Origin: Bdellovibrionales bacterium | Lineage (GTDB): Bacteria > Bdellovibrionota > Bdellovibrionia > Bdellovibrionales > JAUICD01 | Length of the DNA stretch: 64,000 bases | Direction of reading: 5' to 3' | NCBI GenBank assembly: GCA_965197425.1 | Contig: CBDANC010000014.1 | Span: 64,001-128,000, forward strand | Shown here: positions 7,116 to 47,567 of the stretch, piece by piece | Position numbering within the stretch: position 1 is the first letter of the stretch | Layout: each line of letters opens with the position of its first letter | Made by a program: the position numbers and the translations under genes | The notes under the pieces: generated by a model | Seen by the model: the letters and a program-made list of their open reading frames with translations, nothing else | Databases searched by the model: none | Told to the model about the DNA's origin: nothing

Positions 7116-10100
7116 TTATCTGTCTTTTCGAAGTATTTTTAGTCCCAAGTTTATTATGTCGTTTCTTATGCATAAAAGAGCAGGCAAAGCAAACAGTGTG
7201 AGAGTAGTTGCAAACATCAATCCCCACCCCAATGAAAAAGCAAGAGGACCGGTGAATCCCGACTCACCCCCAATACCATAAGCCATTGGAAGTATACCTC
7301 CAACGGTCGTAATTGTAGTTAGTATTACCGCTCTTAACCTGGAAGTTGCACCTTCTATTATCAAAGATCTTTTTCTTATTTTTCCACCGTCAGTAATTTT
7401 ATTTATTTTATCCACCATTATCAGTGAGTCATTTACTGCAACACCCACTGTTCCAATAAATCCGATCATAGCCAATAAGCCCATGTCTAGATCATGGAAA
7501 TATAAAGCCCACAACACACCCACCAACGCAAACGGTGCAGGCAAAATAACCAAAAGTGGCTGAGTCAGAGAACCTAAAATTAACGCTAGCACAACCAAAA
7601 TACCAACCATGCAATAAAATACCACTTTCATTGCCCATTCTCTATTTTTCTTCTCCTGCTCATCTCCGAACTCCACAGCAAATTCATAATCTCTGTTTTT
7701 GGAAATAAAATCCTCTAAAGCTCCATCAAGCCTGGACATAACTTGCTCTGGTGTAGCCACATTTCTATCCACTTTAAAATCGACAATTAATTCTCTCTCT
7801 CCACTCATATGCCTTATTTGCTGAAGGGTTCTGGTATTTACCCAATTACCTATGAGATTTAATGGGATTGAAATTCCTTTGCTACTTTTTATTGTGAAAT
7901 CTTCAAGCTCTCTTATGTCCTCGGGTTCTTCTATGTTAGCCAGCTCAGAGTATATTTCTGTAGTTTCTCCATCCATCCTAATGTAGCCAATCAAATCCAT
8001 ACTCAAATATGGTCTTATCTGACCCGTTACATCTCCTCTGCTCATCTCATATCTGGCAAGCCTTCTGTTATCAGGAGAAAACTTCCACTCCTTTTGGTAT
8101 CTATCAGGATCATCCACAAACCTCTCTATCCCCTCTACATTGGTTCCTATGGCTACAATGCTTTGCTCTAGGGAATGAAAATCTAATCTCTCGTTTCCTC
8201 TTACTTTTACAGATACAATATCTTGTTTGTCTTCTTCTTGCCCCCAACGAATAGCTTCTGCCGCCAGTCTTTCCATATTGTCATGTTTTAAACCAGCCAA
8301 AATTGGCTTTACTTCCTCTAAGACTTGCTTTTTTATCCTGCTTGGGTTTGTGATATTTTTATCCACCCTCAGTCTGATTACAGAATACCTTGTACCTCGT
8401 CTCCATCTACCATCAGCCCACATACCACCTATTGTAGTACTCATTGCCTCGATACCCTTATCTAAAAAAGGCTTCAAAGCTTCATGTACAGGGTCTAAAT
8501 CTTCTTGAGTCGATCTCAATGACTTGTTTTCTTTAAATACCGCATATACATTGATTTGCTCAGGGCCTATGTTGAGCCTAAATCTCTTTTTTACCCTGTC
8601 GTTGGTGTAATGGAGGGTAAATACAAATAGCCCAGTTAAAAAAAGCAGCAACAAATATCTATAGCCCAGCATAAATGTTAAAAGCCTTTTATAGAGCTTT
8701 TGAAACTTAGAAAAAAGATTGTCTATTGGAGCTTTTTTGTATTGCTTTACAAAGTGAGATAGATGGTTTGGGAGAACAAAAAAACTTTCAAGCCAACTGA
8801 AGATAAGCGTCAAGATCACAACCACTGGCAGGGCAAATAGCATATTGCTGATTTCATTTTTTAATAAAATAATTGGGCTAAACGCAATAATTGTGGTCAG
8901 CACAGTTCCTGTCACCGGTATAATCAGGCTTACAACCGCATCTACAGCAGCCTTCTTAGGAGCCATGCCTTCTTCTAAGTTGGAAGTATATTTTTCTGAG
9001 ACAATGATGGCATCATCAACCAAGATTCCAAGTACCAAAATTAAACCAATCATAGATAGAAGATCTATGGAAATTCCAAAAAGAGGCAAAAGCGCAATAG
9101 CACCCAGGTACGCAATGGGTAAACCTAGTGTGGTCATTAGTGCAACTCTAGGACTTAAAAATATAATCAAAATGATAAGTACTAACATTAAGCCAAACAG
9201 ACCATTTGACTTCATCACATCTAGTTGTTGCTTTATAAATCTAGGAGTGTCGAAAGATATCTCTGCCGATATCTTTTCACTCTTAACTTCATCATTAAAG
9301 TTTTCTAGGACACCCTCTACTTGTCTTTGTAACTTTAAAGCGTCGGAAGCTAAGTCCTTTCTTACTCTAAGAGTAACTGCGGGTTGACCATCTCTTAACC
9401 TTATGTATCTATCATCAGGCAGATCATATTCAACATGAGCAACTTGTCCTAACTTAAGTTCATTTCCTATTGTGTTAGTAGCTATTGAGAGATCTTCAAA
9501 ATCATCCAGGGATTTTATACCGTCATCTAAGTTAATAGAAATACTCTCTTCGTCAGTTCTGAACTCACCTATTGAAGTGAATCTTAATTTTTCAAAAATT
9601 ACACTTTTTATGTTGGCTACGCTTAACTCAGCATTGTCAACGGCTTCTTTGTTAAAACGCACATATATGTGCCTGGGTTGCATTCTATTATCTACCCTAG
9701 CAACACCTCTTACCCCCCCTATTCTTCTCTCAAGTCTTTTTACAATGCGTCTGTGATCAGAAGACTTTTCATCAATCCCAATAATGTTTACTGCCATCAA
9801 TAGAATGCTGTCTATTTTCCTTCTGGCAATCTCTATTCTTTCTATTGATGTTGGCAAGTTGGCCCTTAAGCCATCCACTCTTGACCTAACCAATTCTAGA
9901 GATTCTTCTATGTCAGGGTAATCTAGAAAATATTTTAAGATAATATCAGTTCTGCCAACTCTACTATTAGATGTCATTTCCTCCACACCAGGCAGACCCC
10001 TTAGAGAATCTTCTATTGGAAAAGTGATCCATTTTTCTATGTCAACAGGTGAGGCGCCAGGAAGTCTTACCTCTATTTCTATAGATTGAAATTCAAGCGG

Positions 10101-10217
10101 CGGCAGCACATCTCTTTTTATGGTGAATATGGTGTACAAACCAACAACACACATAAACCCAGCAACAAGGTTTACTGTAAACGATCTATTAACAAAATAT
10201 TCTACTAACCACTTCAT
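7116..10217 (-). CDS. RND-family efflux permease (AcrB/AcrD/AcrF family)
   Basis: 1033 aa; GILVDDAIIVSE, GVAVNDSLIMVD, RLRAVILTTITT. Confidence 0.93.
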   Translation of the reverse strand: MKWLVEYFVNRSFTVNLVAGFMCVVGLYTIFTIKRDVLPPLEFQSIEIEVRLPGASPVDIEKWITFPIEDSLRGLPGVEEMTSNSRVGRTDIILKYFLDYPDIEESLELVRSRVDGLRANLPTSIERIEIARRKIDSILLMAVNIIGIDEKSSDHRRIVKRLERRIGGVRGVARVDNRMQPRHIYVRFNKEAVDNAELSVANIKSVIFEKLRFTSIGEFRTDEESISINLDDGIKSLDDFEDLSIATNTIGNELKLGQVAHVEYDLPDDRYIRLRDGQPAVTLRVRKDLASDALKLQRQVEGVLENFNDEVKSEKISAEISFDTPRFIKQQLDVMKSNGLFGLMLVLIILIIFLSPRVALMTTLGLPIAYLGAIALLPLFGISIDLLSMIGLILVLGILVDDAIIVSEKYTSNLEEGMAPKKAAVDAVVSLIIPVTGTVLTTIIAFSPIILLKNEISNMLFALPVVVILTLIFSWLESFFVLPNHLSHFVKQYKKAPIDNLFSKFQKLYKRLLTFMLGYRYLLLLFLTGLFVFTLHYTNDRVKKRFRLNIGPEQINVYAVFKENKSLRSTQEDLDPVHEALKPFLDKGIEAMSTTIGGMWADGRWRRGTRYSVIRLRVDKNITNPSRIKKQVLEEVKPILAGLKHDNMERLAAEAIRWGQEEDKQDIVSVKVRGNERLDFHSLEQSIVAIGTNVEGIERFVDDPDRYQKEWKFSPDNRRLARYEMSRGDVTGQIRPYLSMDLIGYIRMDGETTEIYSELANIEEPEDIRELEDFTIKSSKGISIPLNLIGNWVNTRTLQQIRHMSGERELIVDFKVDRNVATPEQVMSRLDGALEDFISKNRDYEFAVEFGDEQEKKNREWAMKVVFYCMVGILVVLALILGSLTQPLLVILPAPFALVGVLWALYFHDLDMGLLAMIGFIGTVGVAVNDSLIMVDKINKITDGGKIRKRSLIIEGATSRLRAVILTTITTVGGILPMAYGIGGESGFTGPLAFSLGWGLMFATTLTLFALPALLCIRNDIINLGLKILRKDR

Positions 10218-10266
10218 TGATTTATCTATATTATTGTTTTACCAATATCATTATACTATCCATATG

Positions 10267-11676
10267 TTATTCCGTACAATAATTTGGCAACTTGTTATTG
10301 ATGACTAAATGATTAAGGCTTTCTGTAAAAAATTGAGCCTCTGAAACAACCAAGTCTATTAGCTCTCTATTTAATTTATTTCTAATTAGTAAGTAAGCTT
10401 CAAACTCTATTTGACCTAGTTTTAGTTTATTAAATGCTAATCCCAATTGTTCCTTTGAATTTTTAGTAACCTCAGTAAGGGTAGCAATTTTTGTTTTAAG
10501 ATTTTTTAGATTAGTATATATGACAAGTTTTTGCTGTTCTAATTGTTGTTTTCTAAGTTTCAAATTTAAGTTTGCTATTTCATAGTTAGATAAAGATTGG
10601 TTTACTGATTCAAAAAGTTTTCTGCTATAAATAGGCCACTTTAAATTCATCCCAACCATAACATAGTTATCATTTACTTCGTTAAATGTATTTTGTCCCG
10701 CTTTTAATATTAATCCAACATCTGGTTTTTTCCATGAAGGCAACAACTTCACCTCAAGCTCACTTGCCTTGACCCTTAGTTCATATGCTTCAAGCTGATC
10801 TTCAATATCCGTAGTAGCAAAACTTTCGATTGTTAGAGGTTCCAATAATTTGTGAATCTGGTTTTTGGATAACAAAGCCATTGTCTCTTTCTGTAATTCC
10901 AAATTAGCCTGTATTTCTATAAAATTTTGTTTTGTTTCTAAAAAGTCTGTCTTGGCAGATAAAAAAGCATCACGAGTTATAAGTCTTCGATTGTAAGCAC
11001 GGGTAACTGCATCCAGAGCTACTTTTGCATCTTCCATGGTTTGCTTATTTATTTCCAGCGTTTTTTGTAATACCAGAGTATCCATGTACTTTTTTGTTTC
11101 TACCTGACACAATCCAGCCTTAAAATTTTCTAACATAATTCTTTCTGCATCTAATAGATGCTTTGATTTTCTAATCCTTATTCTATCATCCCTTCCAAAT
11201 GCATTGTTGATCAGCTGTTGTGTATACTGAGCAAAATAATCTTCCCTGGAATCTATATTGCTATATGATAAATTAAACGAACCCCCAAACCCAATACCCT
11301 GTAAAAGTGAGACATTAGAGTTTATGGTATTAGAGTCTATAATATTAGAATTAATGTCAGAAACCTTATCAGACCTACTACTATCCCCAACTATCTCCGA
11401 AATAAAACTAGCCTTATCAGACAAATACTGGCTTTGTACTATCTTTAACTGCTGCTTGCTAACTTTAAAACTTAGATCATTTTTCAAAATACCCTTAAGA
11501 TATTTATCTATAGTAAACTCCTCGTTTACATCAATGGAAGATTGATCCTCCGGTTTACTAACAGGAGCATTTTCTACATTTACACTATTAGTACCTACAT
11601 TATCTGCATCTGCACTCTCAGCACCTACAGTTTTGTAAACACAAATTATTATTAGAATTAAAAATAGTTTTTTCAT
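10267..11676 (-). CDS. TolC-family outer-membrane efflux protein
   Basis: Signal peptide, coiled-coil repeats, GMNLKWPIY strand; directly upstream of the RND permease. Confidence 0.75.
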   Translation of the reverse strand: MKKLFLILIIICVYKTVGAESADADNVGTNSVNVENAPVSKPEDQSSIDVNEEFTIDKYLKGILKNDLSFKVSKQQLKIVQSQYLSDKASFISEIVGDSSRSDKVSDINSNIIDSNTINSNVSLLQGIGFGGSFNLSYSNIDSREDYFAQYTQQLINNAFGRDDRIRIRKSKHLLDAERIMLENFKAGLCQVETKKYMDTLVLQKTLEINKQTMEDAKVALDAVTRAYNRRLITRDAFLSAKTDFLETKQNFIEIQANLELQKETMALLSKNQIHKLLEPLTIESFATTDIEDQLEAYELRVKASELEVKLLPSWKKPDVGLILKAGQNTFNEVNDNYVMVGMNLKWPIYSRKLFESVNQSLSNYEIANLNLKLRKQQLEQQKLVIYTNLKNLKTKIATLTEVTKNSKEQLGLAFNKLKLGQIEFEAYLLIRNKLNRELIDLVVSEAQFFTESLNHLVINNKLPNYCTE

Positions 11677-12788
11677 AACGGTTTTGTATCTTTACTGTCT
11701 TTAACGATCTTATAAATATATCCAGAATCTGTTGAAAAGTATATTTCACCAGTTTCCGGTTTTTCCTCTACATGTCTTAGACGATCTTCTATCTCAAGTC
11801 TGCTTTCATCCACAACTTGATTATCTTCATTTAGTTTCAGTTTATTTAGGTGGTCAAATTTAAGTGCAGTGGAAAAGAGATCTCCTTTCCAACTTCTAAA
11901 CATTTTTCCAGAGTAGACCATAAGGGAGCTAGGAGCAATTGATGGTGTAAAATATTTTACAGGTTGCTCCAAGCCTGTCTTTCGAGCTGGTCCTATTGAT
12001 GGACCCCAGTATTCTTTTCCATATGTGATAGTAGGCCAACCGTAATTTTTTGATTTTTGTACAACATTTATTTCATCACCACCTCTGGGTCCGTGTTCCT
12101 GCTCCCAGAGTGTATTGCGATCCCTGTCGTAATATAAACCTTGAGGATTTCTATGACCTAAACTCCATACAGCTGAATCAAAAGGGTTATCAGAAGGTGT
12201 TGTGCCGTCTTCATTGATCCTTAGAATTTTTCCTAAATGTGAATCTAGTTTTTGTGCGTTTCCTCTTTCACCTCTATCTCCAACTCCAAAAAATACTTTT
12301 CCATTTTTTAGAACAATCCTAGATCCGAAATGTCGACCACCAGTCCCCGGAGGGTTTGATCTAAATATAATGGTATTTGTTACCTTATCTTCAAGAAGCG
12401 TTGCCTTGGAGATCACAGTCCCAATACCTTCCCCATACCTCAGAATATAAGAAAAAAACAAAAGTTTATTAGTCGAAAAGTCAGGATGAATCTTTACATC
12501 CATTAAACCCCCTTGACCATGCTCCAATGTGTTTTCAAACTTATGAATTTGCTTTAGGGAGTCAGCACTTTTGATAAGCACCTTTCCGGATTTTGTGGTA
12601 ATAATAATTCTGTTATCAGGCAAAAAATCAAACCCCCATGGTATGTCAGAAATTTTAACCACTTCAATAATTTTAAATGTTTCACCTGAAAAAGAATAAT
12701 TCCTCTCAATAGCTCCTGAAGCACAAGAAATTCCTGCAGTAAAGGAAAAATAAAAAATAAGAAATGAAACCTTTTTCTTCAAAATCAT
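11673..12788 (-). CDS. PQQ-dependent sugar dehydrogenase (aldose dehydrogenase family)
   Basis: GQGGLMDV, HFGSRI, GHRNPQGL, EHGPRGGDEIN, NYGWP, PSIAPS. Confidence 0.92.
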   Translation of the reverse strand: MILKKKVSFLIFYFSFTAGISCASGAIERNYSFSGETFKIIEVVKISDIPWGFDFLPDNRIIITTKSGKVLIKSADSLKQIHKFENTLEHGQGGLMDVKIHPDFSTNKLLFFSYILRYGEGIGTVISKATLLEDKVTNTIIFRSNPPGTGGRHFGSRIVLKNGKVFFGVGDRGERGNAQKLDSHLGKILRINEDGTTPSDNPFDSAVWSLGHRNPQGLYYDRDRNTLWEQEHGPRGGDEINVVQKSKNYGWPTITYGKEYWGPSIGPARKTGLEQPVKYFTPSIAPSSLMVYSGKMFRSWKGDLFSTALKFDHLNKLKLNEDNQVVDESRLEIEDRLRHVEEKPETGEIYFSTDSGYIYKIVKDSKDTKPL

Positions 12789-12834
12789 ACAGGAAAATTA
12801 ACACAATCAAGTTTAATACAAAAGAAAAAAACCC

Positions 12835-12960
12835 CAGGGTGAGGCTAGTGAGTACAAAAACAACGGGACTTGTTACGTTTTTTTGTACGAACGCCTGTTT
12901 CCAGGCAAGCACTCTTTAGCTGTGTATTTACTCAGCAACAGAACTAATTTATAAACCCTG
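12835..12960. repeat. Multi-hairpin intergenic segment, possibly a divergent member of the dispersed repeat family
   Basis: Stems CAGGGT/ACCCTG, GTACAAAAA/TTTTTGTAC, GCCTG/CAGGC; 12837-12864 matches 22565-22592 at about 21/28. Confidence 0.45.
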
Positions 12961-12989
12961 ATTGCTTAGAAGAATAGAATTTTACTACC

Positions 12990-13880
12990 TTAAAATAAAA
13001 CGTGGGCCACTCCTTCATGGTTTTCAACAATTTTTATTGCTTTTGTATTAGAAAATGTCAGCATATACGCATGATGAATACTAAGAACTAAATCTTGCAA
13101 TTTATCATCTTTCTCCAATTCTTCAATATGTAATCCTTTTTCTTTACATTTTTTAATACCTATATGACGATTATGAAAAGAATCTTCATTCATATCTTCG
13201 CCCAATGCTTTTACGATTTTTTCAGCTTTCGTTTCATAATCATCTTCATCACTAGATAACATACCTGTTTTAATCCAGTCTTTTACTAATTCACGAGTAA
13301 AGTGAATGACTTTGTCTGCATGAACAATAAGGGTAGGGTTGTATTTTTGAAAAAGTATAGGCCATATATTGCTATGCTGAGGCCGTTTTTTTATATCTTC
13401 TATAGCTGTTTGAAAAGATTTTCTAATACTATAAGCGGGTAACCCGCCTATTTGTGGATCAATAGATCCAAGTGAAGAATGTTTTCCCATGTGTATAAGC
13501 TTTGAAGAACAAGCTATCATTGTGCCAGCAGATTGTGCTAATTGAGGAACGAATACCTCTATATTTATTCCAAACAAGTCTCTTAAATATTGTACTATTT
13601 TTTCTGTGGCTTCTATCCCTCCGCCTGGGGTATGCAAAACTAGGTCTAATCCAATATTTCTATCTAGCCCCTTTACCACAGACATAAGGGCATGAATATC
13701 AGCATCATTAATCATCATATTATACTGGTTAGGTAGTTGCGATTTCTGTAACCAGCCTGAGTAATAACAAACGATATTTCTTTCTCTACACTTGTGAAGT
13801 AAACTTAAATATTTTCTTCTAGTTACATCAACGCTATAACCAGACTGAATCTCTTGTAATATTTCGTTCCAAGAAGGCAT
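12990..13880 (-). CDS. ClpP-class (SDH/S49-like) serine protease
   Basis: LDLVLHTPGG, AQSAGTMIA, SSLGSIDPQ. Confidence 0.88.
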   Translation of the reverse strand: MPSWNEILQEIQSGYSVDVTRRKYLSLLHKCRERNIVCYYSGWLQKSQLPNQYNMMINDADIHALMSVVKGLDRNIGLDLVLHTPGGGIEATEKIVQYLRDLFGINIEVFVPQLAQSAGTMIACSSKLIHMGKHSSLGSIDPQIGGLPAYSIRKSFQTAIEDIKKRPQHSNIWPILFQKYNPTLIVHADKVIHFTRELVKDWIKTGMLSSDEDDYETKAEKIVKALGEDMNEDSFHNRHIGIKKCKEKGLHIEELEKDDKLQDLVLSIHHAYMLTFSNTKAIKIVENHEGVAHVLF

Positions 13881-14164: not shown

Positions 14165-16231
14165 CTATATTGATGAAATAATATCATTAAAAGTTTTAGA
14201 GGGCCTCATAGCCTTAGATACTTTATTGTGATCAGGGTTATAATATCCCCCTATATCAACTCTTGTACCCTGTACTTTTAAAAGCTCATCTATTATTTGC
14301 TCTTCGTTTTTAGCCAATGCTCTATAGGCTTCAGTAAATTTTAAATTTTCTAGAAGATACAGTGTCCAATAAAAATGACTTCCTCTTATATCTAACTCTC
14401 TTACATTTCTTTTAGGGAATTTATTTTCCCTTATTAACTTGTAGTTGGCTTTCCTGATAGCATTAGCCAACTCAACCAAATCTTTATTATGCAAAGCCAA
14501 ATCATTCATAAGCTCTGAAATTGCCAAAAACTCCCCCAGAGAGTTCCATCTTAGATGATTTTCTTCCAAAAATTGTGCTACATGCTTTGGAGCAGACCCT
14601 CCAGCTCCTGTCTCGTATATCTTTCCGCCCGATAAAAGGGGTACAGTTGAGAGCATTTTAGAGCTAGTACCAGCTTCTAGAATGGGGAATAGATCAGTGA
14701 TATAATCTCTCAAAACATTTCCCGTAGCACAGACAATATTTTGACCCGATTTTATTCTTTCAAGAGTTTTTAAAGTAGCGTCCTTTATATTAAGTATTTC
14801 AAAATCTTTGTTTTTTAGTTTGTCTATTAAAATTTTATCATGCGACCTTTTATCATCCAGACAAACTATAGTCTCTTCTTCAGATCTCTCTATGAGATTA
14901 ATCCAATCTGAAATTGCAATATTTTTTGTAACACAAGATCTAACTATGTCATCCGACTGCAAGTTGCACTTAAGCAAAACACTTTGCTTCTCATCGATTA
15001 TCTCCACAACTCCATCAATATCTGCTTGAAAAGTTTTGTCATGTGAACCATATTCTTCAGCCTTCATTGCCATGAGACCTATATTAGACACACTCCCCAT
15101 TGTGGTTGGATCAAAACCCTTATTTTTTTTGCAAAATTCAATTGTCTGCTTGTATAGCTCAACATAACTTCTGTCTGGAATGATACATTTCACATCCAAC
15201 GAATTGCCTTTAGTGTCTGTCATCTTACCTGAGTCTTTTATTAAAAATGCCATTGAAGAATCAATAATCAAACTATTGGGGCTCTCTATACAGGTAACAC
15301 CTTTACCTGCTGAAGCTAGTGGAGAAGATTTTTGTAAATAATCCTCTATTACCTTTAATAGTTCTTTATTTTCTTTCTTTTTAAATTCAGATAATCCATT
15401 GGCAAAATTTATTTTAGAAAATCTTGATTCATTAGTCTCAACAATTTCATTAAGATAAGCTTTTACAAATTCACCAAAAATAATAGGATCAGAAACCTTC
15501 ATCATAGTGGCCTTTAAGTGAATTGATAATAAAACACTATCCTCCACGCTCTGTATTTGTGTTTTAAAAAATGTCCTTAATTTGTTTATATTCATGAAAG
15601 TTAGATCTATAACATCGCCTTTTTCTACCTCCATTGTTTTTATTTCTTTATTGTTAAAAATAAGCTTTAAGGTTTCACTTTTTACGGCTTCAATAGACTT
15701 TTCATTGTCATAGAAATCCCCTTCTTGCATGTGTGATACATGTGTTTTGGAATTTTCACTCCATTGTCCTATTAAGTGTGGATTTTCCTTTGCATGATCT
15801 TTTATGATTTTAGGTATATACCTTATGGAGTTACCTTCCCTAATAACCGGGTTTACAGCACTTCCTAAAACTCGGGAATACTTCTGTTCATCTTTTGATG
15901 TACCACTTGCTATTCCATCTGATTTAGGAAAATCAGGTATATTAAATCCTTGCTGTTGAAGCTCCAAAATTGCGTCTTTTAGCTGAGGCACAGATGCACT
16001 GATATTGGGGAGTTTTATCAAAAATGCATCTTTTTGCCTTACAAGTTCTTTTAAGCTTAAAAAATCATCATTTAGTAAGTCAAACTCGGCCAATACTCTT
16101 GCTGCAAGTGAAATGTCTTTTAATTCAATTTCAAGGTCATAGTGACTAAACACACTCTTTAGTATTGGCAAAAGTGATTGGGTAGCTAAAGCAGGTGCTT
16201 CGTCTGTCTTGGTATAATATATTTTTTGCAT
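14165..16231 (-). CDS. icd: Monomeric NADP-dependent isocitrate dehydrogenase
   Basis: [50 protein letters not shown]. Confidence 0.95.
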
Positions 16232-16328
16232 TTTAAATTAAGGATAAATAGAAATCCATAAAAACTTAACTGAACAAAAATTATATGAGTGGGTTATAAA
16301 GTCAATATACTTTTTAAAAAATTTTAGC

Positions 16329-16808
16329 TTATTTATTCTTAAGTTTTATAAAAAACTGATTTAAAAGTTCTTTTACCTTCTCCTCTAATATCCCTTGAGT
16401 AAATGCAGCCTGGTGGTTTAATCTTTTATCCGAAAGAATGTCGTATAATGATACTAAAGCTCCTGCCTTAGGATCCCTAGCTCCAAACACAACATGAGAA
16501 ATTCTGGCATTTACAATCGCACCTGCACACATAATGCAAGGTTCCAGTGTTACATACATAGTGGCATCTGTTAATCTCCAGTTTTCTATTTTTTTACAAG
16601 CGCTTTGTATTGCTAAAATTTCTGCATGGTGTGTTGGGTTGTATTTTGTTTCTTTAGTGTTGTGAGCTTTGGATAATAATTTGTTATTTTGAACCACAAC
16701 AGCACCTACAGGTACTTCGTTTTTTTGTAGTGCTTTTCTTGCCTCCGAGATAGCAAGCTCCATCCACTTAATATGAGGGGCTAATGTATACGCATCTTGC
16801 TTTTTCAA
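16329..16808 (-). CDS. tadA: tRNA adenosine(34) deaminase
   Basis: EVPVGAV, HAE, YVTLEPCIMCAGA. Confidence 0.93.
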   Translation of the reverse strand: MKKQDAYTLAPHIKWMELAISEARKALQKNEVPVGAVVVQNNKLLSKAHNTKETKYNPTHHAEILAIQSACKKIENWRLTDATMYVTLEPCIMCAGAIVNARISHVVFGARDPKAGALVSLYDILSDKRLNHQAAFTQGILEEKVKELLNQFFIKLKNK

Positions 16809-37001: not shown

Positions 37002-38183
37002 ATGGCTGATGGATTTAGAGATGTGTTTGTAGTGGGAGCTAAACGAACTCCATTTGGTTCTTTTCTAGGATCACTAAAAAATGTTAGCAACACGAAGTTA
37101 ACAGTAAGTTGTTCCAAAGCAGCAATAGAGCAAGCCAAGATTAAACCTGATAACATAGATCATGTAGTGGTAGGTAATGTAATTCAATCTGGATCTGATG
37201 CCATTTATTTACCAAGACATGTGGGTTTAATCTGTCAAATACCTAAGGAAGTTCCAGCTTTAGGTATAAACAGATTATGTGGCAGCGGTTTTGAGACATG
37301 GGTTCAGGCAGCAAATCTCATTAGGCTAGGTGATGCGGAAGTTGTGCTTTCCTGTGGAAGTGAACAAATGTCACAAATACCTTATGTTGTAAGGGGTGCA
37401 AGGTCTGGCAACAAGATAGGTAATACTGAAATTGAAGATGTATTAATCTCATCACTAACAGATCAGTACATAGGAGATCCTATGGCTGTTACTGCTGAGA
37501 CTCTTGCACAGCGATATAAAATATCTCGTAACAAAGCAGACCAGTATGCTTATCAATCTCAAATGAGATATAAAAAAGCCTTCGAAGGCGGTGTATTTGA
37601 TTTGGAAATTTCTAAAATAACAGATGATAAAGTATCTCTTAGTAAGGATGAGCATCCAAGGGGCGATACAACGATGGAAGGTTTAAAGAGCTTAAAAACT
37701 TTATTTAAAAAAGATGGGGTTATAACTGCAGGTAATGCATCTGGTATAGTTGATGGAGCATGTAGCACTGTATTGGCCTCACAAGAAGCCATAGATAAAC
37801 ATAATCTAAAGCCCATGGCCAAAATAGTAGGTTACGCTTCATGTGGTTGTGATCCTAAAATTATGGGTATCGGTCCGATTTATGCTATGAAAAAAGCACT
37901 AAAATTATCTAACCTATCTTTTGGTGACATGGATTTAATTGAGGTAAATGAAGCTTTTGCACCAGTTGTCTTAGCAGCACAAGAGGAATTGGATTTAGAT
38001 ATGGATATTACAAATGTAAATGGTGGTGCAATATCTGTAGGACACCCATTGGGAGCTACTGGTGTTAGAATTATGAACCATTTGGTTTACGAGATCATTA
38101 GACAAGACAAGGAGTTTGCCATTGGATCTGCCTGTATAGGTGGAGGTCAAGGAATAGCTATCATCATCAAGAGAGTAGTATAA
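37002..38183 (+). CDS. Acetyl-CoA C-acyltransferase (thiolase)
   Basis: NRLCGSG, NEAFA, GHPLGATG, CIGGGQG. Confidence 0.95.
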   Translation: MADGFRDVFVVGAKRTPFGSFLGSLKNVSNTKLTVSCSKAAIEQAKIKPDNIDHVVVGNVIQSGSDAIYLPRHVGLICQIPKEVPALGINRLCGSGFETWVQAANLIRLGDAEVVLSCGSEQMSQIPYVVRGARSGNKIGNTEIEDVLISSLTDQYIGDPMAVTAETLAQRYKISRNKADQYAYQSQMRYKKAFEGGVFDLEISKITDDKVSLSKDEHPRGDTTMEGLKSLKTLFKKDGVITAGNASGIVDGACSTVLASQEAIDKHNLKPMAKIVGYASCGCDPKIMGIGPIYAMKKALKLSNLSFGDMDLIEVNEAFAPVVLAAQEELDLDMDITNVNGGAISVGHPLGATGVRIMNHLVYEIIRQDKEFAIGSACIGGGQGIAIIIKRVV

Positions 38184-38301
38184 AAGTAAATCAATTGTTA
38201 ATTAACAAAGTCACAAACATTAATTTTTGCTCTATTATACCCGATAGGACATGGGTGTTTTTAATTATTTTTAGATATGCTGTAGATATCTGGGTAAAAC
38301 A

Positions 38302-39723
38302 GTGGCGTCATTTTCAATCTTAAAAGTTTTTTTCTTTGTTATCATTACCCTGGTAATATCCTCACTGTTTTTGTTTCTTGCATTTTGCGATCAAAAAAAA
38401 CATATTTTAAAATTAAAAAATTTGATTATAAAGTATAAAGCGAGTCTAAAAAAATATAGCACTATAATTAATATAGAAAAAGAAGTAGATAGATTATCTA
38501 ATAACAAAAACAAACTTGTCGAAGATATAAGTGAACTTGGTTCTGACTACAAAAAGTTAAAGAGCATAAGAGACATTTACTATGAAGATGTTGATCTTAT
38601 CTCTCAAGGTCATTATAAAATGCACTACGACTTTGAAAAATCTGAACGATACAAAGAAAGATTAAATAAAATTAGAGGAGAACAAAAAAACCTTATAAAA
38701 AATAAAGAAGCTATAGTATGTCCAACTTCATGGGCAGTTGGGCAATCAGAGAAAGATGGAAAACAAATGATTAATAGAGTTATAAAATTAGGATTAAATG
38801 CCTTTAATGTTCAAACAGATAATGTGATTTTAAAAGTCAATCACAACAACATTCATAGTTCAGAAGAAAGGGTAGAAAATATTTATGAAAAAATAAATAA
38901 ATTATTAAACCCTCTTCATTGTGAAATTACAGACAAGTTTTATCAATTAAAACTTGAAGAGCTCTACTTAGCATTTGAATATAAGGAAAAAGTTTTTGAG
39001 GAAAAAGAGGAACAAAAAGAAATTAAATTAAGAATGAGAGAAGAAGCAAAGGCTAAAAAGGAATACCAACAAGAGATAGAAAGAGCTAAAGCAGAAGAAG
39101 TTAGATATAACCAGGCATTAGAAGAAGCAAAACAAAAACTAGAAGAAGCAACCGAAGAAAAATTTAGCGAGTATAAAGAACACATAAACAATTTACAAAA
39201 AAAATTAGATGAAGTCCGTGCTAAAGAAAGAGCACTATCCCAAGCACAACTAACTTCCAGAGGTCATGTATATGTTATTTCAAATGAAGGTTCATTCGGT
39301 GAAAATGTTTTTAAAGTAGGTATGACAAGAAGACTTGACCCTATGGAGCGCGTAAAAGAACTAGGAGATGCTTCTGTTCCATTTGGTTTTGATGTTCATG
39401 CTATTATTTTTAGTGAAGAGGCGCCTAAGATGGAAAAGGAACTGCACCGAATATTTGATACTTATCGAATAAATAAGATTAATAACAGAAAGGAATTTTT
39501 CAGAATTGATCTAGATTATATCGAAAACGCTTGTAGACAACTGGGAGCTAAGGTTCAATTTACTAAATTGGCAGAGGCTTATGAATATAAAGAGTCTTTA
39601 AAGATAGAACAAGAATTGAAAAAGGAATCCTTTATAGAACATGAAAATGCAAACAATGGTGTAGGTCAGGATACAAAATCAGAAGATTTAATAGCAGATG
39701 AAATTTTGAAAAAAGTAAGTTAA
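38302..39723 (+). CDS. TM + DUF4041 + T5orf172/GIY-YIG-like nuclease (SNIPE/PD-lambda-1-like antiphage protein)
   Basis: N-terminal hydrophobic helix, coiled coil, GHVYVISNEGSFG...KVGMTRRLDPMERVKELGDASVPF...NNRKEFF. Confidence 0.85.
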   Translation: MASFSILKVFFFVIITLVISSLFLFLAFCDQKKHILKLKNLIIKYKASLKKYSTIINIEKEVDRLSNNKNKLVEDISELGSDYKKLKSIRDIYYEDVDLISQGHYKMHYDFEKSERYKERLNKIRGEQKNLIKNKEAIVCPTSWAVGQSEKDGKQMINRVIKLGLNAFNVQTDNVILKVNHNNIHSSEERVENIYEKINKLLNPLHCEITDKFYQLKLEELYLAFEYKEKVFEEKEEQKEIKLRMREEAKAKKEYQQEIERAKAEEVRYNQALEEAKQKLEEATEEKFSEYKEHINNLQKKLDEVRAKERALSQAQLTSRGHVYVISNEGSFGENVFKVGMTRRLDPMERVKELGDASVPFGFDVHAIIFSEEAPKMEKELHRIFDTYRINKINNRKEFFRIDLDYIENACRQLGAKVQFTKLAEAYEYKESLKIEQELKKESFIEHENANNGVGQDTKSEDLIADEILKKVS

Positions 39724-39805
39724 AGCTAAACTCCTAAACAATTAAACAAAGATTTCTTTGTACAACCACTATATTAATGTTAAAAGAGTATTGTTCTGAG
39801 GACTC

Positions 39806-41047
39806 ATGGAAAGTATAAAGAAAATTGATCCTGAAGTTCACAACGCTATATCTCTTGAAAAAGATAGGCAACTAACTGGGCTTGAGATGATTGCATCTGA
39901 AAATTATGTTTCAAGTGCTGTTATGGAAGCTTCAGGCTCTTGTCTTACTAACAAGTATGCAGAAGGATACCCTGGTAAGAGATACTATGGAGGGTGTGAG
40001 TTTGTAGATATTGTAGAAAATTTGGCAATAGAAAGAGTTAAAAAACTTTTCAATGCTAATTTTGCAAATGTTCAACCACATTCTGGATCTCAAGCAAACA
40101 TGGCAGCCTATATGGCCTTGATCGAAAACAACTCCACTATACTAGGAATGGATCTATCTCACGGTGGCCATCTAACTCATGGATCAAAAGTTAATTTTAG
40201 TGGAATATTTTTTAATGTATCTTCATATGGTGTAGATCAAAACACAGGTCTCATAGATTATCATAAGTTGAAAACTAAAGCTCTCGAATGTAATCCTGAT
40301 CTAATTATTGCAGGATTCAGTGCTTACCCTAGAGAACTTGATTTTGATAAATTTAGAGAGATTGCAGATTTATGCGAAGCTAAACTGCTAGTTGACATGG
40401 CTCACTTTGCAGGCTTAGTAGCTGGTGGTGTACATGATTCCCCAATGAAACAAGCTCATGTTATTACATCTACTACACATAAAACTCTAAGAGGACCTAG
40501 AGGTGGATTTATTTTAACTAATGATGAAGCTACCTACAAAAAGATCAACTCAAAAGTATTTCCAGGTATACAAGGTGGCCCACTTGAACATGTGATTGCT
40601 GCAAAAGCTGTTTCATTTAAAGAAGCACTAGAACCTTACTTTAAGGATTATGCTAAAAGAATTATTTCTAATGCAAAACATTTAGCAGACAAACTTTTAT
40701 CTGAAGATTTTAAACTGGTTAGTGGTGGTACTGATAATCACTTAATTTTAATTGATCTAAACAACAAAAATGTAACAGGAAAGCAAGCTCAACAAGCCTT
40801 AGACTCAGTTGGAATTACGGTGAATAAAAACACAGTTCCTGGTGAAACTAGATCACCATTTGTAACAAGTGGTGTTAGGTTAGGAACCCCTGCTTTAACC
40901 ACAAGAGGTATGGGTCACACTGAAATGGAAATTATAGCAAAGCTTATTTCGAGTGTAATAAATAACTTGGAAGATGAAAAAAAACTTAATAATGTTAAAA
41001 AACAAGTAGAAGAACTTACAAAAAACTTTGAATTATTTAAAAGCTAA
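39806..41047 (+). CDS. glyA: Serine hydroxymethyltransferase
   Basis: [32 protein letters not shown]. Confidence 0.98.
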
Positions 41048-41087
41048 TATGTTTTTCATAGTATTTTAAGTATAAAATAGCTTCCAT

Positions 41088-41921
41088 CTAGAAATGTTCT
41101 GGAAATCTAGTTAAATCCAGGTTATGAGACGCATAATACAGTAAATCTGCTGAACATTTATCTACTTTATCTTCAAGTATCTTTATTATCTCAATCAGAT
41201 CTCTCGATTCAGTAGTCTTAAAAAAACTATTACTGTCATCAAGTGAAATAGTATTTTTTGTGCTATCCCCTCGATTCCATTTGTCAATAGCTCTACTTTC
41301 TAGTTCTTCACACTTAGTTTCATTCAAGATAAAACCCGTATATTTACTAGGGTCATCTTTAAAAAAGCTTTTCAACAACTCAATGTTTCCGTGTATGAAC
41401 ATATTTCTTATTTCATAGTATATAGAAGTATATAAACCATACTTTTGTCTCAATAATCCAACTGGTCTTAGAACTCCATAACCATCCTTAACTAAAACAG
41501 AAAAAAAGTTACTACTGTAATACTTTTTGTTGGTATTTTTATTTTTTACTTTTTCAAGCTTAATGTCGTATAGAGTATCTACAGCAACACCTATGTTGTC
41601 GTACTGGCCTCCCCAAACTGTTGCTAAGTATCCACCAACAACATTTATACGCATGTGCATAAAGTTGATATCCTGATTGTTAAATTTTATATGCCATTTC
41701 TTGTCCTCTTTTTCCATGTACGGGAGATTCTTTAAAGATTTAATCTGATTTAGTGATGATAATCGAACGCTATCAAATTTCATGGCATATTCTAGATGTT
41801 CAATTATCCTAGAAATATTACTCACAAATTCATCGTGCAAACTCTCTCCCTTGCTTCGAACCTCCACTATTTTGTTCTTGAAACTCTTTATTTCACCTTC
41901 TAAATATTTATTCATCGCCAT
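41088..41921 (-). CDS. Hypothetical protein with HEPN-like RxxxxH motif
   Basis: YYEIRNMFIHG; overlaps the upstream STAND gene stop; HEPN call rests on the motif only. Confidence 0.6.
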   Translation of the reverse strand: MAMNKYLEGEIKSFKNKIVEVRSKGESLHDEFVSNISRIIEHLEYAMKFDSVRLSSLNQIKSLKNLPYMEKEDKKWHIKFNNQDINFMHMRINVVGGYLATVWGGQYDNIGVAVDTLYDIKLEKVKNKNTNKKYYSSNFFSVLVKDGYGVLRPVGLLRQKYGLYTSIYYEIRNMFIHGNIELLKSFFKDDPSKYTGFILNETKCEELESRAIDKWNRGDSTKNTISLDDSNSFFKTTESRDLIEIIKILEDKVDKCSADLLYYASHNLDLTRFPEHF

Positions 41922-44900
41922 GCTCTTCTTTGTGCCAGGCTAGTTCCTGGTTCATCCTAGTTTTTGCCTCTTCAAATTTTAGGTTATAAAATTCCTTGAT
42001 AAATTGATGTTTTTCATTTTCGTATTTATGTCTAGCCCAATCTACATCTTGTTGCCATTTTAAACTAAACTCCCCGTATATACCAGACCACGACTCAATC
42101 TTTGCGTTGTTATGTAATGACCACAAAACATTATTTCTATATTTCCCTACTAAATAACCATCAAATTTTCTATAAATTGTATCTGCAATATTTCTCCATT
42201 CTTCACTGCCCTCCCCACAAAAACCTGCGTATCTAGACCAAATAGTAATGTTCTCTATAGGTTCATCATCTTTTAATTCTTTTATCTTTTTAATCACTAC
42301 TTTAGGAACATATTCATTATTCACATTAAATTTTTCAAACCATTTAGGAAGTTCATAACCCAAGAAAGTTCTACTGTTATTTAGTTCTGTCATTATCTCT
42401 TCAAAGCAACCAACAACTTCATCATCACTTCGATCTTCGTATGGAGGAGATCTAAATATTGGAAACAGGTCGATACTTATAGATATTGCATCAAAAAAAT
42501 TATCTCCGTCTTTATTAACAATTTTTAGCCGTTCGAATAGAAGTTTTTTAAAATCAAAAATATCTGGATGCCACTTATCTTGTCTTTCCACAACGATATT
42601 AAGCAGGCTGTAGTTGACCGAGTTGATGTCTCCCAAATTAGGTATTTTAGAAAACACTTCAAATATAAGCTTTAACATATTTATATACAAAGTATCAGTA
42701 ATATCACTAACCAGCAGTCTATCAATAACAGAGTTTACAATATTAGTAGAATCTTTTGATTTACTGTTTTCGATAACATTTATTAATACGTCCTTGTACT
42801 TATCAATGTATTGTTCTACACACTCTTCTGAGTTACTCAGTAGAATATTGGTTAATATATGAATAAATACAACTGTCCTTTTGACTTCATCAAATATTGC
42901 TTTTTTATCTAACAAATATTTTAATTCCAATTCTGATGTTTCACCAAGGTTTTTTTTACTTTTGCTATAAACGAAGTCCAAAAATCTTATTAGTTCTAAT
43001 TTGTTGTTCATATGTTTTGCTTCACACTCTAAATACAGCTTTTCTTTATCTTCTAACAGTTTTAGCACATCCTCTTTTTTTTCCTTCTTTCTCAAATCTT
43101 GAAGCTTTCTAGTTATTATGTTTCTAATGAAATCTCTTAATCCTTCATGGCTTGAACATATAGCGTTATTGATAAATTCTTGTATAACTTTGTCATCAAA
43201 ATTAGGTACAAAAAAGTAATCACATAAATAATCTGTACAAAAAGAAAATTTATCCCTACCAATAGTATCGATCCCGTCTAAAATATGTCTTTCTATTTTA
43301 GATGCTTTACCTCTCAATAGAGGTTCGAATCGATCATTTATTTGTTCTTCAATATTATATGGTGCAGGGTAGACACAGATGTTTGTATAAAATTTATTGC
43401 TACTAAAATTCAAAAAAATACCTTCGCATTTATCGGCAATTTTTTTTAAATCAGTATCTTTACAATATTTGCAATACCAATCCCAAATGTTTCTAGCCTC
43501 TCTAAAATCTGTTGATGTAACCCATGGTTCTTGTATTTTTTCATACAGTTTATTAAACACCTCAATATTTAATTGTCTGTAATAATCTAGGACATCTTTT
43601 GGAATTTTATCAATGCTAGGAGCATTGATAAGTTGATGTATGTCATGGACAAATTGATCAAACAGTTGTAATATAATGGTTTTGCTACCCTGCTTAGTAC
43701 CTTCGCCTAATGTGTCCCACATCTCATTGATAATATCCCTCATATGTTTGTAATTTTCTGATCTCGGATGTAAACATGTACGTTTCATAGTCAATGTCTG
43801 TTCTTTAAAAGAATATTCTGTTCTAACTATTGCTATTAGTGGTTTAATCAATTTTTGATAGAAATCAACCTTTGGATTTTCATCTTCCTTCAATCTTCCT
43901 ATATATTCCAAAGCCTGTGATTGAAAATCTCTTTGATACGATTTCAGAATATTAGGACCACCTACAATCATGGTTGATATAACAGATGATGCTGAATGAG
44001 AACCTATATAACTATTTTGTTTTTCTATTCCTAGTAGTTGTATTGCAAGATTAGTAATGTTTTTTCTGACGCCATCATCGACAGAATACCGTGCAGCTTC
44101 CAGTAACAGTTCTGGTAGTTTTTCCAGAACATCGCTTTGATTAAGCTCCCTAAACATATACTCTTCCTTAATAGGAGATAGATTACAGTTTTTTAGTACA
44201 GATTGGACTAGCTCTACTATTTTACTTGGATATGGTGCTGCAAAATGTTTTGCAATATCAACAATGCTGAATAGTTCTTTTATATTCTTAGTTGTTTCGG
44301 CTAGCTTAACAACTTCACTTACAAAGTTATAAAGAATTCTAGACTGGTTTTTAAAATTGTATTCATGGTTTTGATACCAATCAACTTTAGCTAGAGTAGT
44401 TATTACCTTCTCCAGATCTGGAACAAAATAACCATCTTTTTTAATAACATCATCCAACATATTTTCGACTAACTTACCAAAACTAGATGATTTCGAGTCA
44501 GAACCTTCACCTGCGTATACAAGTGAATTAAATATTATGTGATCTCTAATTACATCAGGTTTCATCTTTAAAAGACCACCATATCTTTTGAGAATTCTAA
44601 TATCTTCTAAAGAATTTATGTCATCGGTTATGTCATCACATTTAATTTGGTTTGCAATAAATCTCTGCTTATCCTTCCCATCGTCAGGAACAAATTTAAC
44701 ACCACTATTGTCATCAAAACTCAATGCTCCTCTATTCATATTATCAACCCTAATTTCTCCGTAAAGGGACATCCAATTTAGAACTTTTCTTGTTTTTTCT
44801 GATTTTCCTTTTAACATCTGATCTACATATTGTTTTGCAATACCAATTTCATCTCTAGGAAGATCTTCTAATCTTCCGCCTTTTTCCATTATGCTTAGTG

Positions 44901-46008
44901 CAACATGAAGGAAAATTGGGTGACCTCCAGTATATTGATTGAGATAGTTTTTGAGATCCTCTTTGGAGTATGGATAAGATTCCAAATTATTTACTTGTTC
45001 GTCTATTAGAGAATTGAAAGATTCTTTCTTCATTGGTTCTAATTTAACACGCTCAACAATCTTTTTGATTTTATAGTCTTCAAAAAAATTTATAATTTTC
45101 TGATCATACCTGCTAAGTGCAATGATAAATTTCCACTTTTTAATTCTTGAACCTGGGTTAGTAAGTTGTCCCATTAACCTTTGTAAAAATTCGATACTTT
45201 CTGGCTCATCCATTAGTATGACATGGTCTATATCTGGTGCAGCTATACCGGGAAAATCTTTGTTATATGCAAGTGTTGCCACATTTGCCCAATATACTTG
45301 TTTGCCTTCTTGTGCGTACCTGCCCTTTGATAAAGCTCTATTGCCAGCTTCTATCAAAAATCTAGACTTTCCAACTCCTCCCTCTCCCGTGACCAAAAGA
45401 ACTTTTTTATCACTACGGAAAAATGTATCTGCCTTTTCCAGTTCTTCTTCTCTTCCATGGTATTCAGATTCATATTCATCCTTATTCTCCCTGACAGAGT
45501 TGTACTCATTGAGACTAGTTATAGCATCATCAAGTGTAAGATAGGATGCAGGGCTATCTTTAAAAAAGATATTGTATATTAAAGAGTGTAATCTTATTGG
45601 TTTTTCTAACTCTTCACCACTTCGCAATTCTGCTTTTATTTTCAATTCACTAAAGAGTTGTCCTATTTGCTTGTTCCACTTGTTTTCATTATTCTTGTTG
45701 ATATATGAGTTTGTCATCAAAACCCATTTATTTACCTTCGACCAAGTATTATGATAGGGGTGAGTTTTATCATCCTTTATTTTTTTAATTTTTTTCAGTT
45801 CTTCTTTTGCATCTTTAATTAGATCTCCAGAAGATTTGTGAAACTTAAATTGATATACTGTGAGTCCATTCTCTGATATGGCATCAATTGCACCATCTTT
45901 TCCATCACTCCTATAGATTTTTATAGATTTATCTTGATAATTCAGTATGGTGCTACAGAGGCTTTCAAATGTTGGCCAGTGTTTTATTTTACTCCAATCT
46001 ATTTCCAT
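41908..46008 (-). CDS. Mrr-like nuclease-STAND NTPase (Avs/NLR-like)
   Basis: FESLC...GKDGAID...VYQFK N-terminus; Walker A GEGGVGKS; Walker B VILMDE; TGGHP (GxP); long helical C-terminus. Confidence 0.8.
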   Translation of the reverse strand: MEIDWSKIKHWPTFESLCSTILNYQDKSIKIYRSDGKDGAIDAISENGLTVYQFKFHKSSGDLIKDAKEELKKIKKIKDDKTHPYHNTWSKVNKWVLMTNSYINKNNENKWNKQIGQLFSELKIKAELRSGEELEKPIRLHSLIYNIFFKDSPASYLTLDDAITSLNEYNSVRENKDEYESEYHGREEELEKADTFFRSDKKVLLVTGEGGVGKSRFLIEAGNRALSKGRYAQEGKQVYWANVATLAYNKDFPGIAAPDIDHVILMDEPESIEFLQRLMGQLTNPGSRIKKWKFIIALSRYDQKIINFFEDYKIKKIVERVKLEPMKKESFNSLIDEQVNNLESYPYSKEDLKNYLNQYTGGHPIFLHVALSIMEKGGRLEDLPRDEIGIAKQYVDQMLKGKSEKTRKVLNWMSLYGEIRVDNMNRGALSFDDNSGVKFVPDDGKDKQRFIANQIKCDDITDDINSLEDIRILKRYGGLLKMKPDVIRDHIIFNSLVYAGEGSDSKSSSFGKLVENMLDDVIKKDGYFVPDLEKVITTLAKVDWYQNHEYNFKNQSRILYNFVSEVVKLAETTKNIKELFSIVDIAKHFAAPYPSKIVELVQSVLKNCNLSPIKEEYMFRELNQSDVLEKLPELLLEAARYSVDDGVRKNITNLAIQLLGIEKQNSYIGSHSASSVISTMIVGGPNILKSYQRDFQSQALEYIGRLKEDENPKVDFYQKLIKPLIAIVRTEYSFKEQTLTMKRTCLHPRSENYKHMRDIINEMWDTLGEGTKQGSKTIILQLFDQFVHDIHQLINAPSIDKIPKDVLDYYRQLNIEVFNKLYEKIQEPWVTSTDFREARNIWDWYCKYCKDTDLKKIADKCEGIFLNFSSNKFYTNICVYPAPYNIEEQINDRFEPLLRGKASKIERHILDGIDTIGRDKFSFCTDYLCDYFFVPNFDDKVIQEFINNAICSSHEGLRDFIRNIITRKLQDLRKKEKKEDVLKLLEDKEKLYLECEAKHMNNKLELIRFLDFVYSKSKKNLGETSELELKYLLDKKAIFDEVKRTVVFIHILTNILLSNSEECVEQYIDKYKDVLINVIENSKSKDSTNIVNSVIDRLLVSDITDTLYINMLKLIFEVFSKIPNLGDINSVNYSLLNIVVERQDKWHPDIFDFKKLLFERLKIVNKDGDNFFDAISISIDLFPIFRSPPYEDRSDDEVVGCFEEIMTELNNSRTFLGYELPKWFEKFNVNNEYVPKVVIKKIKELKDDEPIENITIWSRYAGFCGEGSEEWRNIADTIYRKFDGYLVGKYRNNVLWSLHNNAKIESWSGIYGEFSLKWQQDVDWARHKYENEKHQFIKEFYNLKFEEAKTRMNQELAWHKEEHGDE

Positions 46009-46119
46009 AAACTTCCATCTCTTTTAACACAATGAGGCTTATATCTCCAACCATATTTCACGGTATGACTGAAAATGAAATATAAAGATATTAGATCAAA
46101 ACCATAACAAGACAGTAAA

Positions 46120-46425
46120 CTATGCTACGTCTCTATAGATCAAACGAACTTTCTGCCCAGTTGCACCAAGAACTCTGAATAGAACATCCAAGGAAATTCC
46201 ACAACTATCGGCATTTAATATTTTTGTTATTCTAGCCCTTGAAGTCTTAGATAATTTAGCCAGCTTCGTAACCGAGATTCGTCTCTTCTTAACAATAGTA
46301 ATAATTTTTTTAACAACACTATGACGAATTTCCCATTCCACGGCATCAGAATATGTTAATCCAAGGTCACTAGCCAAATCTTTAGGCCTACTACTAACAA
46401 TGATCTTCTTTTTATTCCTTTGCAT
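46120..46425 (-). CDS. XRE-family HTH regulator/antitoxin-like protein
   Basis: LAKLSKTSRARITKILNA...ISLDVLFRVL; start placed at ATG 46425. Confidence 0.8.
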   Translation of the reverse strand: MQRNKKKIIVSSRPKDLASDLGLTYSDAVEWEIRHSVVKKIITIVKKRRISVTKLAKLSKTSRARITKILNADSCGISLDVLFRVLGATGQKVRLIYRDVA

Positions 46426-46535
46426 CCCCAAACTTGCTACCTTTAATAAAAGGTGTATCATATTTGGTACATACGTCAAATAAATTTTTTATTTTATTAA
46501 CTGACAGTCATTACAATTAGGTGTAAAAAGTATAT

Positions 46536-47567
46536 GTGAAAAAACTGAATTTATTAATAATATGTGGTGGGATGTCTTGTGAACATGAGGTTTCCATTCA
46601 ATCCGCCAGAAGTATTATAAAAAACTTAGATAAATCAAAGTATGATATTACCCTCGTTTGTATAGATAAAAAGGGTGTCTGGTACTGGATTAATGACATA
46701 GAATCTATTTTTAATTATCCAGACTATAAAACTATCCCATCTGAAAAACTAGGTGATATAGTATCATTACAATTTTCAAAACCTACTATGATATGTTCTG
46801 AAAACAAAACCAAGAAAATAGATGTAGCATTCCCCATACTACATGGATACCTGGGTGAAGATGGAGCCATACAGGGTATGCTTAAAGTAGCTGATATTCC
46901 GTTTGTAGGAGCTGATGTCTTAAGTTCTGCAATGTGTATGGACAAACACATTACAAAAACCATTGCCAGCTCACACAATATTCCTACCTCCAAATATATA
47001 GCCGTAAATAAAAATTCTACCTTTGATCTGAACTCCTTAAACTACCCTGTTTTTGTAAAACCCAACAACGCAGGTTCTTCTGTAGGAATAAGTAAAGTTA
47101 AATCTAAAGATAACCTCAAGAAAGCAATAGCAGAAGCTTTAAAATATGATTCTTTAGTTTTAATTGAAGAGTGTGTGGAAGGGCAAGAATGTGAGATTGC
47201 ACTTTTAGGAAATGAAGATGTAAAAGCATCAAGCGTGGGCGAAATTATACCAAGAGGACATGAGTTTTACTCTTATGAGGCAAAATATTTAGATAAACAA
47301 GGAGCAGACTTGATAATCCCTGCTAATCTTAGCCAAGATACAGAGAATAAAATAAAAGAATGTGCAATAAAGGTTTATAAACTATTAAATTGTCGTGGCA
47401 TGGCCAGAGTTGATTTTTTTATCAAAAAGAACGGAGATGTGGTTTTTAACGAGATAAACACAATTCCAGGTTTTACATCTATCAGTATGTACCCAAGCCT
47501 TTGGTTACACAAAGGGATTAAATACAAAGATCTGTTAGATCACCTAATTGAGCTTGCCAGAGTTTAA
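46536..47567 (+). CDS. ddl: D-alanine--D-alanine ligase
   Basis: GGMSCEHEVS, LHG..GEDG, GSSVG, EINTIPGFT..SMYP. Confidence 0.96.
   Translation: MKKLNLLIICGGMSCEHEVSIQSARSIIKNLDKSKYDITLVCIDKKGVWYWINDIESIFNYPDYKTIPSEKLGDIVSLQFSKPTMICSENKTKKIDVAFPILHGYLGEDGAIQGMLKVADIPFVGADVLSSAMCMDKHITKTIASSHNIPTSKYIAVNKNSTFDLNSLNYPVFVKPNNAGSSVGISKVKSKDNLKKAIAEALKYDSLVLIEECVEGQECEIALLGNEDVKASSVGEIIPRGHEFYSYEAKYLDKQGADLIIPANLSQDTENKIKECAIKVYKLLNCRGMARVDFFIKKNGDVVFNEINTIPGFTSISMYPSLWLHKGIKYKDLLDHLIELARV

Follow-up and report, generated by a model that had tools for sequence, protein, structure and literature searches.

The stretch analysed here, hereafter the window, comprises 64,000 nucleotides (nt) of the genome of a Bdellovibrionales bacterium (assembly GCA_965197425.1, contig CBDANC010000014.1, forward-strand positions 64,001 to 128,000), and carries on its minus strand a pair of genes that we interpret as a defence cassette. 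The first gene, at 41908-46008, encodes a protein of 1366 amino acids (aa) in which a nuclease motif, a STAND NTPase and a long C-terminal region follow each other as in an Avs-like receptor, an assignment based on the open reading frame (ORF), its homologues and an alignment of 12 sequences. The second, at 41088-41921, encodes a partner of 277 aa (275 aa when read from the ATG at 41915, which is the form found in the protein database), a predicted HEPN-type RNase from a family without a Pfam model. An earlier reading of the sequence, the original prediction, had placed both ORFs at these coordinates and described them as convergent on glyA (39806-41047), which proved correct, and every motif that it listed was recovered. 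In the large protein these are a PD-(D/E)xK or Mrr-like nuclease motif, D38-G-x-x-D42 ... Q53-x-K55 (KDGAID..YQFK, 45844-45897), a Walker A motif, GEGGVGKS (45364-45387), a Walker B motif, VILMDE(P) (45205-45222), and GGHP; in the partner it is RNMFIH, or R172-N173-x3-H177 (41391-41408), at which a helix predicted by the structure model (163-176) ends. The STAND stop codon overlaps the start of the partner, again as claimed; the overlap is 14 nt when the first ATG is taken as the start and 8 nt (ATGAATAA) with ATG 41915. The interval 37500-47500 is covered with zero differences by a single contig of run X1, from which the assembly may itself derive, so the agreement is not independent.

Database searches identified full-length homologues of the STAND protein at 64, 41, 25 and 24% identity, of which searches with single sequences returned just two, along with one homologue of the partner. 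The nuclease residues D38, D42, Q53 and K55 are conserved in all 11 homologues that possess an N-terminus, the Walker A residues G211, G213, K214, S/T215 and R216 and the Walker B residues D267, E268 and P269 in 12/12, and of the GxP helical domain P364 is found in all 12 and G362 in seven. Against Pfam, the large protein gave sub-threshold matches to AAA_16 and nSTAND models only; its homologue P0007 scores above the cut-off of nSTAND_NTPase5 (35.3 vs 34 bits), whereas the window protein alone falls below it (E 0.02). Its ESM look-alikes, at 0.99, belong to nSTAND3, nSTAND5 and Mrr_cat clusters of 1200-1340 aa. Beyond the NTPase module lie some 850 aa that can be aligned across the homologues and match no TPR profile in Pfam. 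Pattern scans of viral and metagenome contigs found no relative, phage records gave no match, and sequence searches of the PDB returned nothing relevant, with no match to a solved Avs chain. From a scan of genome contigs, 24 loci were dropped on account of a similarity restricted to the surroundings of Walker A. The Aulosira plasmid AP018310.1 encodes a STAND protein (L017, 4605-8225) in which a weak EAD10 match replaces the nuclease and the C-terminal tail is similar; with an E value of 4e-31 over partial coverage and no partner on the plasmid, it was set aside as a more distant, EAD10-fused family.

The linkage of the two genes in other genomes was borne out from both search directions, and the pairing is real. 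Starting from the STAND protein, a five-sequence profile matched 7 of 401 genomes in the phylum of genome G417 at E values of 1e-70 to 1e-130, and in all five where the 3' end of the STAND gene is uncut, it is directly followed by an overlapping gene that has RN-x3-H. No partner was found in the other two genomes: in G684 the STAND gene is cut near residue 1152 by an insertion sequence (IS)-type integrase gene, and in G669 at residue 325 by the end of the contig. Starting from the partner, overlapping samples gave matches in 6 of 301 genomes and in 7 of 147, which yielded seven new loci; at six of them the partner stands directly behind a full-length STAND gene (1335-1340 aa), and at the seventh, in G1065, the partner is broken and rearranged and no STAND was found. 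At L092, one of the six, the partner is frameshifted. The junction reads ATGA at 10 of the 11 genome loci and is a 17-nt overlap at the eleventh, L092. On plasmid pAzo01 of 'Nostoc azollae', the sole plasmid matched by the partner query among 72,556 records (E 7e-10), the STAND gene is decayed and runs across the origin, and its stop is immediately followed by the start of a likewise decayed partner, with RNYFVH. The database proteins P0003 and P0006 are encoded on the same 33,833-nt contig and are presumably adjacent, judging from termini (YE-stop and MNE) that fit the 8-nt overlap of the window; P0004, P0007 and P0008 are sequences without genomic context. At L074 (7209-11254), a TAG after residue 613 splits the STAND gene, the second ORF begins 8 nt later and the partner is intact; this may be a real split or an assembly error.

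Pairwise identities of STAND and partner proteins correlate over 12 pairs, the presumed P0003/P0006 pair included (Mantel rho 0.88, p 1e-4), and since related genomes share their history, this correlation reflects joint descent and not contact. In trees built with FastTree, four of nine splits are common to both proteins with support of at least 0.97 in each, while the remaining splits differ, and in the tree of the partner their support reaches 0.87. Both genes are under purifying selection, with dN/dS values of 0.14 for the STAND gene and 0.07 for the partner in one close pair (L084 vs L091).

The partner proteins measure 265-320 aa and lack a P-loop domain. An R-x4-H motif by itself is weak evidence for HEPN, being present in 69 of the 325 ORFs of 230-330 aa in the source genome, eight of which have it in the form RN-x3-H. 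What gives the motif of the partner its meaning is conservation: 12/12 aligned homologues, which share 16-62% identity with the query, all have R172, N173 and H177, three of only 12 invariant columns; the motif is also present at L092 and in the Nostoc pseudogene. One homologue in the database has 61% identity, and a 12-sequence profile matched 308 representatives at 50% identity clustering (257 at E<=1e-10), and of the 150 listed, nearly all are either fragments or proteins that stand alone, with a length of about 250-320 aa. Three of the proteins, P0064 (1191 aa), P0079 (718 aa) and P0080 (628 aa), end, at the C-terminus, in the half of the partner that bears the motif, and are possible fusions to a STAND or another sensor. 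A structure model with a predicted local distance difference test score (pLDDT) of 76 is a helical bundle, compatible with HEPN; an earlier model from two sequences reached a pLDDT of 38, and the fold search with it was uninformative. An ESM lead at 0.89 pointed to a cluster with 17% HEPN_Cthe2314, hhalign against a thin, 4-sequence HEPN template aligned the motif only (probability 0.13%), and PF18730, meant for a comparison with Cthe_2314, matched 0/126 genomes and also 0/14 controls. Pfam gave no match, to DUF6375 or any other model, for the window partner and its family (seven members searched); neither protein of the cassette was matched in PADLOC, and NCBIfam gave weak unrelated matches only. 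The HEPN call of the original prediction thus stands as far as the Rx4-6H motif is concerned but found no significant match at the level of fold or profile, and we describe the partner as a predicted HEPN-type RNase.

The cassette occupies a variable site. In the same-genus genome G001, the gene order is thiolase, glyA, a 151-aa ORF and ddl; in the window, a homologue of PD-Lambda-1 (38302-39723, plus strand, PADLOC E 6e-148) is found between thiolase and glyA, on the far side of glyA and outside the cassette, and the STAND gene, the partner and a helix-turn-helix (HTH) gene between glyA and ddl. The cassette is therefore an insertion at glyA-ddl relative to G001, which is without it, and whose region also has no PD-Lambda-1 homologue and no HTH gene. 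In run X3, one contig connects 38161 with 39806, 18 other bases included, and shows the site empty of PD-Lambda-1. Judging from G001 and run X3, glyA is flanked by two variable slots, one of them with a known defence gene. The 151-aa ORF in the glyA-ddl slot of G001 (L015, 6623-7078, minus strand) has no match in the source genome, G000. The HTH gene (46120-46479, minus strand), HTH_37/HigA-like (Pfam HTH_37 E 3e-7), lies upstream of the STAND gene on the same strand, belongs to the insertion here and is single-copy in the genome; it had no tblastn match at the other cassette loci examined, and no toxin ORF of at least 80 aa adjoins it. The STAND gene was found in none of the 40 relatives of the source genome, G000 being the only positive among the 41, and a three-sequence profile found no true homologue in 400 other genomes of the source phylum, the four other matches among these 401 genomes being short stretches with E>=1e-5. 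Overall GC content and that of third codon positions (GC3) are close to those of the neighbouring genes, so that composition shows no sign of recent transfer. Elsewhere in G000 (C13, 143554-143769), behind an unrelated 535-aa ORF, lies a short, broken relic of the STAND family, with two stops in about 70 codons at 41%; it is the trace of a second, lost copy.

The genes around the cassette in other genomes were surveyed by scanning 43 ORFs, picked by hand from 89 listed candidates with some swapped by eye. Within this sample, a defence-island context is present at many loci, not all. A full BREX/Pgl set (PglW-X-Y-Z-BrxD-BrxHI) precedes the STAND gene in G669, and the neighbours include a type IIG restriction-modification gene and DprA/ShosA (L084), a type I specificity subunit (L091), YhcG/PDC-S02 (L072), PDC-M19A and PDC-M11A (L071), Schlafen (L074), a conflict nucleotidyltransferase and CHAT (L083), and an MkoA-like helicase (L063). 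No clear defence match was found among the scanned neighbours of L082, L093, L092 and L070. Directly behind the cassette of L092 lies a 1510-aa ORF (8634-13166, plus strand) with no Pfam or PADLOC match, and at L091 an ORC-CDC6-like ATPase and a 273-aa gene (14276-16803, minus strand) separate the type I specificity gene from the cassette.

That the cassette serves in defence is, in our view, highly probable. The analysis itself established the gene pair and its overlap, the conservation of motifs, the two-way linkage, the correlation between the divergences of the two proteins, purifying selection, the patchy pattern of insertion and the defence genes nearby. How it would do so can be stated with about even confidence: as a conserved two-gene cassette, likely acting by abortive infection, in which the triggered STAND activates its own DNase and the RNase of the partner. 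By analogy with studied receptors, the C-terminal region of the STAND would recognise a conserved phage protein, and ATP-dependent oligomerisation would switch on the N-terminal DNase, leading to degradation of DNA. Once triggered, the STAND would turn on the co-translated partner as well, likely by direct binding. The phage-protein trigger, the RNase activity, the contact between the two proteins and the question of which controls the other are all matters of inference in this scheme. Coupling as strict as this points to a partner produced in step with the STAND protein and acting together with it, and the catalytic-type residues of both predicted nucleases are conserved side by side. Taken separately, the partner is probably an active HEPN RNase, and it is likely, if slightly less so, that the STAND gates it.

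The direction of control could also be reversed. In a guard or toxin-antitoxin arrangement, a resting STAND would restrain a constitutive HEPN RNase, which phage binding, cleaving or sequestering of the STAND would set free, so that the RNase would serve as a second line of defence should a phage inhibit the receptor. The translational coupling, in which the larger gene comes first, would suit such an arrangement, as would the fact that an intact partner was never found without the C-terminal half of a STAND upstream, that the IS-cut STAND of G684 has no partner and the broken partner of G1065 no STAND, and that a STAND without an intact partner exists (L092). However, this pattern of losses amounts to three draft genomes, and at L074 an intact partner lies behind a split STAND; we consider release unlikely, and prefer a triggered STAND that activates the RNase. 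That preference also holds over a non-catalytic partner, a chaperone, stabiliser or RNA-binding adaptor comparable to Avap2, with the DNase of the STAND as sole effector. KpAvs2-Avap2 offers a precedent (PMC11564622), the nuclease motif of the STAND is already intact, and the fold and profile searches gave the partner no significant HEPN match. The three motif residues among so few invariant columns nevertheless fit the Rx4-6H definition of HEPN, as given in the available part of PMC3710099, and the partner lacks a DUF6375 match, so an accessory role appears less likely still. Finally, a selfish addiction module, or a function against plasmids instead of phages, might account for the patchy distribution, the IS neighbours and the one decayed plasmid-borne copy, but with a single match in 72,556 plasmid records, and with an architecture and neighbours that resemble those of antiviral STANDs, it is very improbable.

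In its most far-reaching interpretation, the cassette would, tentatively, represent a receptor of the nucleotide-binding leucine-rich repeat (NLR) type that governs two nucleases, a DNase in cis and in trans a HEPN RNase from a new family of hundreds of clusters. Such a layout would possibly amount to inflammasome-like recruitment or a guard arrangement, absent from the described Avs1-24. The characterised Avs receptors are mostly single proteins with one fused effector, whereas the whole of the present STAND family retains, across 20-25% identity, both the DNase motif and a dedicated, translationally coupled partner with an RNase motif. With this pair, two questions become directly testable: for what reason an NLR would need a further effector encoded apart from it, and whether effectors can be activated in trans by the NLRs of bacteria. 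The partner also delimits a HEPN-like family, with 308 clusters at 50% identity, that was overlooked by the copies of Pfam and PADLOC searched.

Among known systems, the nearest are the Avs proteins with a QxK nuclease (Avs4, Avs7, Avs8 and Avs11-21; Lee et al. 2026, PMC13581612). The available part of that study describes them as sensing a conserved phage protein, the portal protein in the case of Avs4, and killing the cell, an ability lost in QxK mutants of Avs7, 8, 11, 12, 14, 17, 18 and 20. They share with the cassette STAND the N-terminal QxK nuclease, central STAND NTPase, long C-terminal region and defence-island context, and the cassette STAND may fall within the 589 clades or 684 sensor clusters reported there. 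It differs from them in matching no PADLOC model and no solved Avs chain, and in its near-obligatory second gene with an RNase motif. AVAST models are included in PADLOC 2.0. For seven family members none of these was among the PADLOC matches at E<=1: the protein appears to work like an Avs, yet without such a match we do not call it Avs4. KpAvs2, from an operon with Avap1/Avap2, is likewise an Mrr-STAND-sensor accompanied by a small accessory gene, and depends on the bound accessory protein (Bechon et al. 2024, PMC11564622). As far as the available part of that paper goes, Avap2 (DUF6375, PF19902) binds near the nuclease-NTPase linker, is not known to be catalytic and is found with about 5% of Avs2 homologues, in an operon that often includes a radical SAM gene; the cassette partner, in contrast, carries the invariant RN-x3-H and was present wherever the 3' end of the STAND gene was uncut. 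The HEPN RNases RiboL-PSP, MAE_28990 and Cthe_2314 (Anantharaman et al. 2013, PMC3710099) resemble the partner in an Rx4H that ends a helix and in a predicted helical bundle, and the RN-x3-H form occurs in three of four HEPN members compared, or as their R[HD] variants. The links to STAND in the available part of that work are fusions, whereas the cassette partner is a separate gene with no Pfam match. Two genes, STAND plus HEPN effector, also make up the nSTAND2 counter-invader system (Kaur et al. 2021, PMC8195603), but there, in the part available, both genes encode a STAND and HEPN is fused to the inactive one, unlike a partner without P-loop. Two further reports (PMC12839542 and bioRxiv 10.64898/2026.10.19.760177) concern, in their available text, other ATPase systems. 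The view that no named system has this pairing held up, none being matched in PADLOC, NCBIfam, Pfam or the literature, subscription papers and large supplements apart, and the cassette is an undescribed two-gene variant of the Avs-type receptors.
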